From the NCBI GenBank assembly GCA_000503875.1, contig CP006913.1, forward strand, positions 990,001 through 1,022,000: a stretch of DNA of 32,000 bases. The letters run 5' to 3'. Every line of letters starts with the position of its first letter. The stretch's first letter is position 1. Below the pieces are notes generated by a model that saw nothing but the letters and a program-made list of their open reading frames with translations, was not told the DNA's origin and ran no database searches. A program made the position numbers and the translations under genes. This DNA is from Candidatus Saccharimonadota bacterium. GTDB taxonomy: Bacteria > Patescibacteriota > Gracilibacteria > Absconditabacterales > Absconditicoccaceae. Below, piece after piece: positions 12,462 through 29,351 of this stretch.

Positions 12462-13601
12462 CTAAACTGGTTTAGTATAAAATTCTTTTTTCCACTTTTC
12501 CAACATCGTATGTAAGTATGAAATATTATGAAGGCCTAATAAAATTCCACCCAACATTTCACCTTCTCTCATCAAATGATGAATATACGCTCTACTAAAG
12601 TTTTTACACGTATAACACTGACAGGTATCAGTCAGAGGCGCGAAATCTTCTCTATATTGAGCATTAGTTATTTTTATATTTCCATTATCAGAAAATCCAA
12701 TCCCATGTCTTCCTATTCTCGTTGGTTGCACACAATCAAACATATCAAATCCGTTTTCTATGGCATGCAAAATATCTTCTGGAGTTCCAACTCCCATCAA
12801 ATACCTTGGTTTGTCAGAAGGTAACTTATCACCAACATATTCAACCACATCACGAATAAGTTCTTTCGTTTCTCCAACACTCACTCCTCCAACAGCAATT
12901 CCGTCCCAAGCATATTGGCTAAGAAAATCTATAGATTCCTGTCTTAAGTCATGAAAAACACCTCCTTGAACGATAGGAAACAAGACACCACGAGCCTCAT
13001 CATATTTTGGTTTAAAATGATCAAATGCTCTTTTTGCCCAACGATGAGTCATATCCATATGTTTTTTGATAGTAGTTTTATCAGCTCACGAAGGAGAACA
13101 GACATCCAATACCATCATAATATCACTTCCAAAATTACATTGAATATCTACGACATTTTCTGGCGTAAACATATGCTTAGATCCATCTATAGGAGATGCA
13201 AATTTTACACCTTCTTCTCTAAGCTTCATACCAACAACATGACTATTTTGTTCACGATCATTTCTTTTGGATAGTCCCAAACTAAACACCTGAAATCCTC
13301 CACTATCCGTCAAAATAAGTCCATCTCGATGTTCAAAGGTATGAAGTCATCCAGCTTTTTTAATCAATTCATCACCTGGACGAAGATACAAATGAAAAGT
13401 ATTTGCCAAAATTAATTTAATCGTATTTTCATGACCCAGATAATTAGGATCTTTCAGAAGATCTAGAGGAATTCCTTTGATAGTAGCTTTGGTTCCAACA
13501 GGCATAAAAACTGGCGTAGACAAAGTCACTCCATTTAGCGTTATTTGTCCAACCCTCGCTTTTCCTTTTTGCTTCAGAACTTTAAAATCTAATTTTGACA
13601 T
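12462..13601 (-). CDS. tgt: Queuine tRNA-ribosyltransferase
   Basis: Three track ORFs in one frame, joined by TGA at 13347 and 13086. Motifs: [19 protein letters not shown](CGA)[32 protein letters not shown], CxCxxC (CQCYTC) zinc motif. Confidence 0.9.
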
Positions 13602-15355: not shown

Positions 15356-18340
15356 ATGGCAACGCTTAAGGAAATTGGAGAAAAACGACAGAAAAAATGG
15401 AAAGAAAGCAATCTTTACCAAGTCAAAGAAGACAAAAATAAGAAAAAATTTTATGTACTAGAAATGTTTCCATACCCTTCTGGAGCTGGATTACACGTAG
15501 GACATCCAAAAGGATATATCGCTGGAGATGTTTTGGCACGCAAAAAAATGCTAGAAGGTTTTTCTGTTCTTCATCCAATGGGTTTTGACACTTTCGGTCT
15601 TGGAACAGAACAATATGCTATAGACAACAAAATGAAACCACAAGTGGTTGCAGAAAAAAATATAAATACATTTATCAACCAGCTCAAAGATCTAGGATTG
15701 ACCTATGATCGAGATAGATCTTTCAGTACTGCCGACCCTGATTATTACAAACGAACACAACGAATCTTTTTGAAAATGTACACGCATTACTACGATGAAA
15801 AAGAAGCCAAGGCCAAACCTATTACTGAATTAGAAAAACAACTCAAACAACAAAACAAATCTGAATCAGAAATCAAAGATATCATCGACAATCAACGTCT
15901 TGCGTATGTTGATTACAAACCTATCAATCGATGTCCAAAATGTATGACAGGGCTTGCCAACGAAGATCTTGACGATGGAAAATGTGAACGCTGTGGATCA
16001 GAAGTAGAACAAAAACCTATGAGACAACGAGTACTCAGAATTACCAAATATGCAGATAGATTGATTACAGGATTGGACAATTTGAATTGGGACGAATCTA
16101 TGAAAGATCTAGAAAGAAACCGAATTGGAAAATCCGAAGGAACTCAATTTAAGATGAATATCAAAGATTCAAAAGACCTTGCATTCGAAGTCTACACGAC
16201 CCGTGTTGATACCGTTTTTGGTATGTCTTTTGTCGTAATGGCACCAGAACATCCATTAGTAGATCAGATTACAACCAATGAATACAAAGCAAATATAGCT
16301 GCCTACAAAGAACAAGCTAAGTACAAATCTCAACTCGAAAGAACAGAACTTCAAAAAGAAAAAACAGGAGAATTCACGGGCGCATATGCTATCAACCCTT
16401 TCAATGGAGAAGAAATCCCTGTCTACGTTGGAGACTATGTCCTCGCAAATTATGGAACAGGAGTAGTAATGGCAGTCCCTGCACATGATGAAAGAGATTT
16501 TGAGTTTGCTAAGAAATATAATATTCCGATCGTTCATGTTATATGACCATCTTTTGCAAAAAAACACGAATGAGCAGAAGCAAAATTATCAGGATATGGG
16601 ATGATTTACGATGAAAAAGAAAACAAATTTTTAGTATGAAATTCCATTGTAGAAGGAAATAGATCTTTATTACGACTACCATGATGAACTATAGAAAAGT
16701 GAGAAAGTATTATAGAAGGAACGCTTCGCGAAATCATTGAAGAAACTGGCTATACAGATTTGGAATTCGTAAATGAAGTTTGTTGTTGCCAATCTTTTTA
16801 TCATACATGATGATCCAAAAACACACGAAGAGAAAACAATGCTAAATTTTTATTCTTCAAACTCAAATCAGATAAAAGACAAGAAAAAAAATTAACAGAA
16901 CATGAAGAAGACACACCAATAATCAAAGTTTCAATCGAAGAACTATTTGAAAGCACAAAAAACCAACCAGATAAAAAAGATGAATTCAATGGGAAAAAAG
17001 AAAGTGATTTTTTCAAAATAGAAATGCTCCAAAAATATATGACAGGTAATGCTGCTTACACAGAAAAAGGAATCCTCGTAAATTCCTGAAATTTCTCATG
17101 ACTCACTTCTGACGAGGCTATCGCAGCGATGCAAAAACGATTATCAGAAAATAATATTGGCGGAAAGAAATCCAACTTCAAAATCCAAGACCGAGTATTC
17201 TCCCGCCAAAGATATCGAGGAGAACCTTTTCCAGTTATCTTCTGTGATGACTGTGGAATCGTTCCTATGGACGAATCAGACCTTCCTCTTACTCTTCCAG
17301 ACGTCGAGAATTACGCTCCAACAGGAACAGAAGAATGACCGCTTGCTGCCATCGATGAATGGATAAACACTACCTGTCCACACTGTGGAAAACCAGCAAA
17401 AAGAGAATCCAACACGATGCCAGGACGAGCAGGTTCTAGTCGATACCGACTCAGATATATGGACAATAAAAACGATAAAGCACTCGTCAGCCCAGAAAAC
17501 GAAAACTATCGAGGCAATGTTGATGTCTATGTTGGAGGTGCAGAACACGTGACCAGACATATGATTTACGCAAGATTTCGACAAAAATTCTTGTTTGATA
17601 TCGGTATTGTTACCAAAGAAGAACCATTCGAAAAATATCATAAAGTAGGATTGATTATGGCAGAAGACGGTCGTAAGATGTCCAAAAGACGATGAAATGT
17701 CGTACTTCCTGACAGCATTATCGAAGAATTTTGAGCTGATACATTGAGAACCTATGAAATGTTTATGGGACCTTTTGATCAAGCTATTTCTCGAAATACC
17801 AATGGGATGAAAGGAATCAAAAAGTTCTTAGATAAAATTATTGCTCTACAAGACAAAATCAAAGAAGGTGACGAGGACAAAAAGACATTAAGTCTCCTCC
17901 ACCAAACAATCAAAAAGCTTACCGAAGATATCGATGGATTTAAATTCAACACAGCTATCGCTCAGTTGATGATTTTGGTAAACCATCTTACCGATCAACC
18001 ATCACTCACCAAAGAAACATTTCAAAATCTTATTATTCTTATAGCTCCATTCGCTCCGCATCTTGCCGAAGAATTATGGGAAACTTTAGGAAACAATTAT
18101 TCTATTTTCACAACATCTGTTTGGCCTAGTTACAACGAAAACTATTTAGTCGCAGATATGGTTACCTTACCCGTTCAATTCAATGGAAAAATGAGAGGTA
18201 CTCTGGAAATGAGTAAAAATGCAGGGGAGAAAGATGTCCTCGATGCTATCGCAGCAGACACAAAACTCTCCGCCCACCTCCCCACAACTCCAAAGAAAAT
18301 TATCTACATCCCAGGAAAAATCATCAACATCATAATGTAG
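15356..18340 (+). CDS. leuS: Leucyl-tRNA synthetase with an inserted Nudix domain
   Basis: Frame 2 is continuous across four track ORFs. Motifs: HVGH (HIGH), TTRVDTVFG (editing domain), AHDERDFEFAKKY, SRQRY(CGA)GEPFP, VGGAEH, KMSK(R)(CGA)(TGA)NVV. More than 12 CGA codons lie at Trp positions conserved in LeuRS. Confidence 0.93.
16547..17050 (+). other. About 165-aa Nudix hydrolase domain inserted in-frame in LeuRS
   Basis: Lies between ...KYNIPIVHVI and AYTEKGILVNSG (about 14 residues apart in E. coli LeuRS as I recall it). Canonical Nudix box GTIEKGESIIEGTLREIIEETGY at 16685-16753, preceded by LL(CGA)LPG. Confidence 0.75.
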
Positions 18341-28170: not shown

Positions 28171-28255
28171 GGAAGGTTGGCAGAGCGGTCTAACGCGCAC
28201 CGTTGGAAACGGTGTGTACTGCAAGGTACCGGGGGTTCGAATCCCCCATCTTCCG
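28171..28255 (+). tRNA. tRNA-Ser (anticodon GGA), class II with long variable arm, no encoded CCA
   Basis: Acceptor GGAAGGT/ATCTTCC, anticodon stem CACCG/CGGTG with loop TTGGAAA, variable arm GTAC..GTAC, T-arm GGGGG-TTCGAAT-CCCCC, discriminator G. Confidence 0.9.
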
Positions 28256-28281: not shown

Positions 28282-28309
28282 ATCACCTACAATTAAGGGT
28301 GATTTTTTT
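28282..28309 (+). terminator. Terminator-like hairpin after the tRNA
   Basis: Stem atcacc/ggtgat, 10-nt loop, T6 run. Overlaps the stop of the convergent RelA/SpoT gene. Confidence 0.45.
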
Positions 28310-29351
28310 ATTTAATAATATTACGTAAAATTCTCACAAATTCTGTTGTATCTCAAAAATAATTAGGATATCATTTTTTAAGTTCATTTAATCCTTCTCA
28401 CGAAACAAGAACAACCTGTCAATCTTTTTCATCAAGAAATAGTTTTTCTTTTTCCAAATATAAATTCGTTGCATCATCCAGTTTTCATTTTTCAAAACCA
28501 GTTACTGTAGCTGTTTTATTTATATTATCCAAAACCAGTAAATAGTGCTCATAATTCTCTTTTCTCTTACTTAATTTAGTATCAATAAACCTAATAGCAT
28601 TACTATATGTCTCCAATTTCTTTATTACATTCAAATCTGTTTCCATTATTTTTAAATGATTTTTTATTTCTTCCTCAGTTAAAGAACTATGTTTATCTAA
28701 AGTTGGCATTCCCTCTTTTATAGCCAAGTATGAACTACTCATTGCAAAAAAGTCCAATCGTTTTTCAGGTCATTCACTAGATTTTAAGGAATGTTCCAAA
28801 ACTATTCACATAGTTTCCACTGCCGTTGCCCATATATGCTGAATATCAGTCCTTAACTGAATTTCTATTTGTAATCAATTATAATGAGTACGATATTTAT
28901 TCTTATATTCATAAATAAGATGCAAAGACCTATATCAAGATTTTTTTGGATTTATAATGTAATTATTTTCCTTAATCAAAGAATGTAAAAATTTACTAGA
29001 AACAATAACATCTCTAAGCTTATTTACATAAGAAATATCTCTTAAAATAACTCTTAATCATCAAATATCCTGCATAGTTGGCAAAGACATCGATTTATAT
29101 CTTTCTAATTTTCTTATTATAGATGGAGTACGTTTTAGTCTCTCCACAACCAACGCAGAAAATCTCAAAGATTTTATCTTTCCTCTAATATTTGACTGAA
29201 AAGTATTCATAGGATAATCATGAGAAGACCTCCAATTATTTAATATAATTAGTGCTTCATTTTTATCTATAGCAGTAGCAGATGAGTCAATAAGAATTTT
29301 TCAAGCTTTAACTACCTGACTCCTAGTATAAATTGGCTTAATATATTCCAT
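28308..29351 (-). CDS. RelA/SpoT-domain (small alarmone synthetase / toxSAS-like) protein with extended C-terminal domain
   Basis: Frame verified from ATG 29351 to TAA 28308-28310 with about 11 TGA. Motifs: RLKRTPSIIRKL, MQDIGGLRVIL, NPKKSGYRSLHLIY, EIQLRTDIQHIWATAVE, LKSSEGPEK(CGA)LDFF. About 150 further residues of unknown fold follow. Confidence 0.75.

Follow-up and report, generated by a model that had tools for sequence, protein, structure and literature searches.

Can a leucyl-tRNA synthetase (LeuRS) house a complete Nudix hydrolase within its editing domain, and if it does, what would such a domain be for? The question is raised by the leuS gene of an Absconditabacterales genome, which lies in the 32,000-nucleotide stretch of contig CP006913.1 (assembly GCA_000503875.1, positions 990,001 to 1,022,000 of the forward strand) that we refer to here as the window. 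An original prediction, made from the letters of the window alone, had described about 165 extra in-frame residues at 16547-17050, between the motif IPIVHVI and the motif that follows it; the insert proves to be slightly longer, with IPIVHVI ending at residue 396, AYTEKG (AYTEKGILVNSG) starting at residue 567, and 170 extra residues between the two. We conclude that this insert is almost certainly a genuine nested Nudix domain, and that it is the local 'type A' member of an old LeuRS-Nudix architecture widespread in the candidate phyla radiation (CPR)/Patescibacteria; the window copy is one member of this large CPR-wide group and no singular event. The features of the gene are as follows, with residues numbered along the full protein.

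15356-18340, forward strand: leuS, whose product scores above the TIGR00396 cut-off and has 1h3n as its best PDB match
15494-15505, forward strand: HIGH signature H47-V-G-H50 of the class I synthetic site, as read from the sequence
16196-16213, forward strand: threonine-rich CP1 editing motif T281-T-R-V-D-T286, aligned with TTRPDT of T. thermophilus
16484-16498, forward strand: editing-site motif H377-D-E-R-D381, aligned with HDQRD of T. thermophilus
16544-17053, forward strand: the in-frame insert (residues 397-566, 170 amino acids), a Nudix domain with short linkers
16607-16969, forward strand: Pfam NUDIX match (residues 418-538)
16685-16753, forward strand: Nudix box GTIEKGESIIEGTLREIIEETGY, G444-x5-E450-x7-R458-E459-I460-x-E462-E463-x-G465-Y466
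16799-16831, forward strand: loop 3' of the Nudix box with Y482, K488, W491 (encoded by CGA) and R492, the most conserved positions outside the box (aromatic, Lys, Arg)
17054-18337, forward strand: C-terminal LeuRS part, with the end of CP1, the second half of the catalytic core, and the anticodon-binding and C-terminal domains
17675-17689, forward strand: KMSKR, within the C-terminal LeuRS part

The Nudix insert and its host enzyme

Searched with the Pfam NUDIX hidden Markov model PF00293, the translated insert scores above the gathering cut-off of 21.1 bits both alone (39.7 bits, E = 6e-10) and in the full protein (35.2 bits), and nearly the whole profile is covered (positions 10-126 of 134), in agreement with the proposed family. 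A profile built from 16 related inserts aligns over its whole length with 2azw, a free-standing Nudix protein (E = 3e-12). The AlphaFold2 model of the insert by itself (predicted local distance difference test, pLDDT, 84.9; predicted template modelling score, pTM, 0.81) has the Nudix-type order of strands, box helix and C-terminal helices, and as a Foldseek query it retrieves 542 PDB Nudix chains at E ≤ 1e-3, with template modelling (TM) scores of about 0.6 and identities of 11-21%. Among the top matches are AtNUDT7, the diadenosine tetraphosphate (Ap4A) hydrolases of Aquifex and C. elegans (3i7u and 1ktg, with target-normalised TM of 0.71-0.72), YmfB/NudJ and RppH, and we regard the alpha/beta/alpha Nudix fold that the model predicts as certain.

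The Nudix box lies at the predicted position, but it is not quite letter-perfect as had been claimed, since Tyr occupies the last 'U', as it also does in 73% of related LeuRS inserts. E459, E462 and E463 are expected to bind metal and to act in catalysis, and G444 and G449 are both encoded by TGA. The earlier view that the catalytic glutamates are intact and the domain not decayed is well supported, with the box Glu and Arg residues kept and the insert under purifying selection (see below). We also considered an intein, self-splicing or mobile insertion and rejected it, because Pfam gives only NUDIX in the insert, with no domains of such elements, and because the Nudix copies of related LeuRS are orthologous by site.

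The protein into which the domain is set is a bacterial-type LeuRS, scoring 937 bits against the equivalog model TIGR00396 (leuS_bact, cut-off 548) and matching T. thermophilus LeuRS (1h3n) best in the PDB (E = 8e-198). In a 55-sequence LeuRS alignment, which includes relatives both with and without the insert, H47, V48 and H50 of the HIGH signature are invariant, as are T281, T282, R283, D285 and T286 of the CP1 motif and H377, D378, R380 and D381 of the editing-site motif, while those of KMSK show little or no variation. D381 corresponds in the alignment to the second Asp of T. thermophilus HDQRD, which we take to be the catalytic editing Asp, and the insert begins 15 residues further on; all synthetic and editing motifs of LeuRS are kept despite it. 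Because the insert cuts the match to PF13603, the Pfam model of the editing domain, at position 166 of its 185, it can be placed in a loop towards the C-terminal end of CP1, a loop presumably exposed at the protein surface. The corresponding gap is 12 residues in T. thermophilus LeuRS (I362 to R375), where the window protein has 170, and about 78 of the 120 LeuRS nearest to the window protein have 17-29 residues there, which supports the gap of about 14 residues that the original prediction gave for E. coli.

The leuS gene is one open frame of 994 codons with a TAA stop once TGA is read as Gly and CGA as Trp, and in this code no unrecognised stop or frameshift separates the insert from leuS. 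A frame scan with TGA as a sense codon finds 13 in-frame TGA codons, whereas under table 11 the frame is broken at the TGA at 16544-16546, precisely the start of the insert. CGA is found at every universally conserved LeuRS Trp position (the bracketed residues of RN[W]IG, RQRY[W]GEP, [W]AGSS[W]Y[W]LRY and ARF[W]), and 19 Trp codons of the gene are CGA with only 5 TGG. The double recoding of UGA to Gly and of CGA/CGG to Trp is the Absconditabacteria (SR1) code (Shulgina and Eddy, PMC8629427), and the database proteins nearest to the LeuRS are named Absconditabacteria, SR1 or Gracilibacteria. From the CGA codons at conserved Trp positions together with the published code it follows that the translation behind the original prediction, including the segment LLWLPGG, was correct. 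Within the insert, 8 Gly codons are TGA and 2 Trp codons are CGA; the latter, W440 and W491, align with W in relatives, and in a residue-level comparison four loci decoded by the same rule (L003-L006) have W at both positions.

Along 6985 nt the window shows 100% identity with a 191-kb sediment-metagenome contig in ENA, gene calls give the protein on three contigs, and the same LeuRS-Nudix architecture is present in other samples (L001, at 89% identity, and L002). Orthologues occur in 5 GTDB species representatives, all with an intact box after correct decoding; this count, which comes from a scan with the type-A alignment, is a minimum, since patterns made by back-translation fail on TGA-Gly and CGA-Trp codons. 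Across the other samples and these five species the insert-bearing orthologues span 45-89% identity. The concern that the insert might be an assembly chimera is thus answered by identical sequence on independent contigs and by the same architecture in other samples. Ratios of nonsynonymous to synonymous divergence (dN/dS) between the window and L001 come to 0.13 within the insert (0.085 if only its Nudix core is counted) and to 0.11 in the remainder of leuS, and in a second, independent pair (L005/L006) they are 0.14 for the insert and 0.09 for the rest; the box residues, moreover, stay conserved among inserts that are just ~20-40% identical overall. The insert is under purifying selection and is not decaying.

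One of the loci just named departs from this pattern in its reading frame. In L002 (GTDB representative CAYRHE010000006.1), which NCBI labels 'Candidatus Peribacteria' yet which uses the SR1-type code, the leuS frame shifts soon after the Nudix insert, and the longest open reading frame (ORF), of 791 amino acids, has an out-of-frame end; this is probably an assembly error or a pseudogene.

Distribution and probable exchange of the insert

An exhaustive HMMER search with the insert profile returned 575 cluster representatives at E ≤ 1e-10, the best 150 of which are mostly LeuRS or LeuRS fragments, and seeding a search with P0130 brought up about 120 LeuRS, almost all of which have PF00293 among their precomputed matches. 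The named sources of Nudix-carrying LeuRS are Absconditabacteria, Falkowbacteria, Paceibacterota, Parcubacteria, Pacebacteria and the Patescibacteria group, and the spread of the insert, which alignment of related CPR LeuRS had been suggested to map, takes in hundreds of CPR LeuRS with one to three Nudix modules. The remark that no aminoacyl-tRNA synthetase (aaRS) with an internal Nudix domain was known therefore holds for the literature, in which a full-text search (subscription-only literature being outside its reach) found nothing relevant on LeuRS or other aaRS in connection with Nudix, CPR or Patescibacteria, but not for the databases, where hundreds of CPR LeuRS bear PF00293. The nested arrangement is visible there as automatic Pfam matches, and a published description was not found.

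The Nudix copies in 272 full-length LeuRS, a set biased towards carriers, number none in 98 proteins, one in 107, two in 53 and three in 14 (174 carriers). They occupy three fixed sites, of which one is the 'canonical' loop of the window copy, another the N-terminal junction of CP1 and the third close to the CPxCG motif. When each copy is paired with its nearest relative, canonical copies pair with canonical (182 cases) and N-junction copies with N-junction (95), while copies inside one protein are 33-48% identical, and this combination of site-wise orthology and low internal identity points to old insertions and duplications and not to recent hops. A full Nudix box is present in 164 of 201 canonical copies, which keep E450, R458, E459, E462 and E463, in 54 of 99 N-junction copies and in 3 of 8 at the third site, and multi-copy LeuRS usually retain at least one intact box. 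The window insert belongs to the divergent 'type A' subgroup, recognised by a WRENNAK motif. One further protein, P0123, has two tandem copies at the canonical site that match two other, single-copy subtypes, so that differential loss of old paralogues accounts for part of the diversity.

Nudix is not the only enzyme domain found in these proteins, as some CPR LeuRS of 1300-1560 amino acids also have a Ser_hydrolase or alpha/beta-hydrolase domain at the N-terminal CP1 junction and, in some, a HAD domain downstream. Four such proteins of 1493-1564 amino acids (P0278, P0284, P0287 and P0296) combine up to three Nudix domains with Ser_hydrolase or alpha/beta-hydrolase, or with HAD_2 downstream, and another, P0379, bears the JGI name 'leucyl-tRNA synthetase/phosphoserine phosphatase'. 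These multi-hydrolase LeuRS suggest a wider pattern of domain accretion in otherwise minimal genomes. Outside LeuRS, the insert profile matches free-standing metagenomic proteins of 143-190 amino acids (E ~1e-20 to 1e-29), which are uncharacterised and have the same [FY]xAxxHKxxNR loop. Other hosts are rare: P0249 (1318 amino acids) has the order GNAT, Nudix (two copies), GNAT, M17 leucyl-aminopeptidase, and P0226 (393 amino acids) joins Ser_hydrolase to Nudix.

At short evolutionary distances the insert is labile. Its states are mixed even in clusters less than 20% diverged in the LeuRS core, and the window's own cluster contains 5 intact, 2 short and 1 degenerate insert; that close relatives have lost it repeatedly argues for an accessory part and against a place in core editing. 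Synonymous divergence (dS) is 0.23 in the insert against 0.71 in the rest of leuS in one species pair, and 0.23 against 1.44 in a second, independent pair. For L005 and L006 the codon identity at same-residue sites is 0.89-0.97 inside the low-dS block and about 0.55-0.65 outside it, the block extending over window positions ~16550-17150 and residues ~442-590 of the L005/L006 leuS products. In deep pairs codon identity is exactly at chance both in the block and outside, and an Rfam search of the block gave no family match, which suggests more recent shared ancestry of the insert and not a nucleotide-level element. Constraint at the nucleotide level was rejected as the source of the low dS on these two grounds and because codon-bias expectations are far below the observed values. 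The insert segment thus seems to have been exchanged by recombination among related lineages, as judged from two lineage groups only.

Possible roles of the nested domain

The explanation that we favour on balance, with confidence a little above even, is that the insert is a catalytically intact nested Nudix pyrophosphohydrolase, a tethered accessory that would clear adenylyl by-products of LeuRS. Its parts deserve different degrees of belief. The domain is probably active as an enzyme, while the suggestion that it acts on LeuRS-related adenylyl by-products is considerably more tentative, at less than even odds. LeuRS would charge and proofread tRNA-Leu as normal, and the Nudix module would be a tethered, Mg2+-dependent accessory hydrolase; its likeliest substrates would be adenine dinucleoside polyphosphates or related by-products of the nucleoside diphosphate-linked (NDP-X) type, for example Ap4A formed from leucyl-adenylate (Leu-AMP) and ATP, so that a nucleotide made by the synthetase would be cleared or tuned at its source. 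Aminoacylation would not need the module, since in related lineages it has decayed or gone missing.

Synthetases make Ap4A from aminoacyl-adenylate and ATP, and Nudix enzymes are widespread Ap4A hydrolases (PMC10148737). Substrates of the ApnA type would be the most economical choice, given this source of Ap4A, the conserved aromatic, Lys and Arg positions of the loop downstream of the box, and the compact Ap4A hydrolases among the best structural matches. In 159 canonical-site copies the loop has F or Y in 92%, K in 94% and R in 88%, and the region at 16799-16831 corresponds to the specificity 'X-loop' of Nudix enzymes, in which ApnA hydrolases have a marker Tyr (PMC5389931). Y482 lies 16 residues past the Nudix box, a position compared with that marker by description and at the level of sequence only.

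Several observations weigh against this explanation. The aromatic marker is only suggestive as a sign of an ApnA hydrolase, and all NCBIfam Nudix subfamily models score far under their cut-offs on the insert: the best, though sub-threshold, is RppH PRK00714 (23 against 116 bits, E = 4e-5), followed by NudE NF008736 (21 against 169), MutT TIGR00586 (16.5 against 97.9) and the YffH/AdpP nucleoside diphosphatase family TIGR00052 (16.4 against 79.6). The full-length AlphaFold model is poor (pLDDT 58, pTM 0.34) and so provides no geometric tie between the Nudix site and the synthetic or editing site. Among the 120 nearest LeuRS, proteins with intact, degenerate or truncated (42-72 amino acids) inserts are intermingled with proteins that have none, and the full box is missing from about 18% of the copies at the canonical site and 45% of those at the N-junction. 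Finally, the HAD and alpha/beta hydrolases beside CP1 in other CPR LeuRS are unrelated to Nudix, and a permissive landing pad for passengers fits them as well as functional coupling does.

This last point leads to the alternative that survives best, though we think it rather unlikely: that the domain does a housekeeping job as an active hydrolase on a substrate unconnected with LeuRS chemistry, the tolerant CP1-flanking loops of an essential, constitutive gene serving as its carrier in streamlined genomes. This would account for the HAD_2, Ser_hydrolase and alpha/beta-hydrolase modules that other CPR LeuRS have at these CP1-flanking sites, for the unrelated or degenerate inserts (42-72 and ~160 amino acids) at the same site in relatives, for the existence of free-standing proteins of the same Nudix family, and for the close relatives that do without the insert. 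However, the association is old and highly specific, with best matches to the insert profile that are overwhelmingly LeuRS, three sites and site-specific orthology, and few other hosts (P0249 and P0226) are seen although many carrier proteins would be expected. A bolder extension of the favoured explanation takes in the accessory hydrolases as well, with the CP1-flanking loops of CPR LeuRS as an accessory-hydrolase platform, the Nudix domain degrading Ap4A/ApnN by-products or alarmones in cis, and the module as a lineage-exchanged recombining cassette; as a whole we consider this unlikely.

A non-catalytic module, that is, a structural, tRNA-binding or protein-binding CP1 appendage whose box is kept for nucleotide or ligand binding, appears quite improbable. 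The Nudix clan does have non-enzymatic members (PMC5389931), and there are full-length copies without the box residues, both single (P0022, P0031, P0035, P0059 and P0034) and as second copies in multi-copy LeuRS; yet the catalytic residues are all intact in the window and in the 164 canonical-site copies counted above in spite of low overall identity, and the usual retention of an intact box in multi-copy proteins is as expected of an active and degenerate pair. Somewhat less probable still is an RNA-directed role, in which an RppH-like 5'-pyrophosphohydrolase or decapping activity would act on ppp-, NAD- or Np4A-capped RNA brought near by the tRNA-binding synthetase. RppH gives the best NCBIfam match, its structures are among the top Foldseek matches and the host protein binds RNA, but the RppH score is far under its cut-off and there is no obvious RNA substrate presented at CP1, because mature tRNA has a 5' monophosphate. 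That the structure is an artefact of chimeric assembly, pseudogene formation or mistranslation, as could be thought from the 8 TGA codons that break the region under table 11 and lead gene callers to fragment it, is effectively refuted by the continuous frame in the documented lineage code, which the insert's own codons use, and by the identical contigs, the divergent orthologues and the dN/dS of 0.13 described above.

If the bolder reading, with the Nudix domain degrading by-products in cis on an accessory-hydrolase platform, is true, then this would be the first aaRS with built-in control of its own nucleotide side-products, or with an added layer of proofreading. Extra domains in aaRS, which are textbook enzymes, are usually a sign of new functions, be it in editing, in signalling or in regulation. 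With this architecture a cis link from an aaRS to Ap4A-type nucleotide turnover, the bacterial role of Ap4A being still debated, becomes directly testable, and we expect that the architecture and its multi-hydrolase relatives would surprise specialists in aaRS or in Nudix enzymes.

Surroundings of the gene and comparison with known systems

The code of this lineage leaves further marks on the gene and on its database records. Over the window's 27 ORFs CGA is the majority Trp codon (CGA and CGG together make up 55% of Trp codons), with 57 CGA and 50 TGG per 10,000 codons. This frequency is above the fewer than 37 CGA per 10,000 codons reported for Absconditabacteria (PMC8629427), so that the reassignment is at an advanced stage here; the leuS genes of two relatives have 7 CGA and 16 TGG (L005) and 3 CGA and 20 TGG (L006). 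Of the 15 Gly codons of the insert 8 are TGA, against 5 of the 54 elsewhere in leuS (Fisher p = 6e-4), and for other genes the share is 28%; the GGN codons are unusually well kept in the LeuRS core. The insert is also distinct in composition, with a G+C content of 29.8% against 38.1% for the rest of the gene.

Gene calling with table 11 shatters leuS at its TGA codons and calling with code 4 puts W for Gly; part of the database comparison used segments of database proteins as queries, in which TGA is written as W and CGA as R. Many records that were called whole are named by NCBI only as 'class I tRNA ligase family protein' (P0013, a close relative, P0132/P0271, P0302 and P0323), others being leucine--tRNA ligase, and this uninformative naming is apparently due to inserts that break the equivalog call. 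Lineages with alternative codes hide architectures of this kind.

Three neighbours in the window are listed here.

12462-13601, reverse strand: queuine tRNA-ribosyltransferase (Tgt)
28171-28255, forward strand: tRNA-Ser(GGA)
28308-29351, reverse strand: small-alarmone-synthetase-like gene with a RelA/SpoT domain

The other window genes include FtsW/RodA, two P-type ATPases, an HMA-DsbD_2 protein, a hybrid histidine kinase, a major facilitator superfamily (MFS) transporter, a DUF2461 protein and a cytochrome b5-like protein. The gene neighbours in the 32-kb window give no functional hint and have no obvious tie to the insert.

In its synthetase part the window protein closely follows the LeuRS of T. 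thermophilus (1H3N/2BYT) and E. coli (4AQ7/4ARC), with the same collinear HIGH, KMSK(R) and Zn-type Cys motifs, CP1 Thr-rich motif and editing Asp, and anticodon-binding and C-terminal domains. Besides the insert it differs from the T. thermophilus enzyme by having no leucine-specific domain (residues ~581-627 in T. thermophilus, corresponding to ~17650-17670 in the window) and by an extra helical segment of ~37 amino acids rich in Lys and Glu (residues 143-181, 15782-15898) after the first half of the Rossmann fold. A relative, the LeuRS P0002/L001, has a further 17-residue insertion (VIASDGVIASEAKQSIG) early in CP1.

As a Nudix domain the insert shares its box, its fold and a core of ~135-150 amino acids with free-standing proteins such as the uncharacterised 2AZW of E. 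faecalis, the Ap4A hydrolases 3I7U and 1KTG, and RppH; unlike these it is nested in another enzyme and falls under every curated subfamily cut-off. Two other systems offer partial parallels, the IleRS with a GNAT domain (NCBIfam NF040702), which is likewise a class I synthetase with an added catalytic domain, and the double-Nudix proteins reportedly described by Lin et al. in 2009 (cited in PMC5389931), in which Nudix is duplicated in one polypeptide, as it is in the multi-copy LeuRS. In contrast to both, the Nudix domain of LeuRS is not appended but sits inside the editing domain, it is found at up to three sites in one to three copies, and in some CPR lineages it is joined by HAD and alpha/beta-hydrolase modules.

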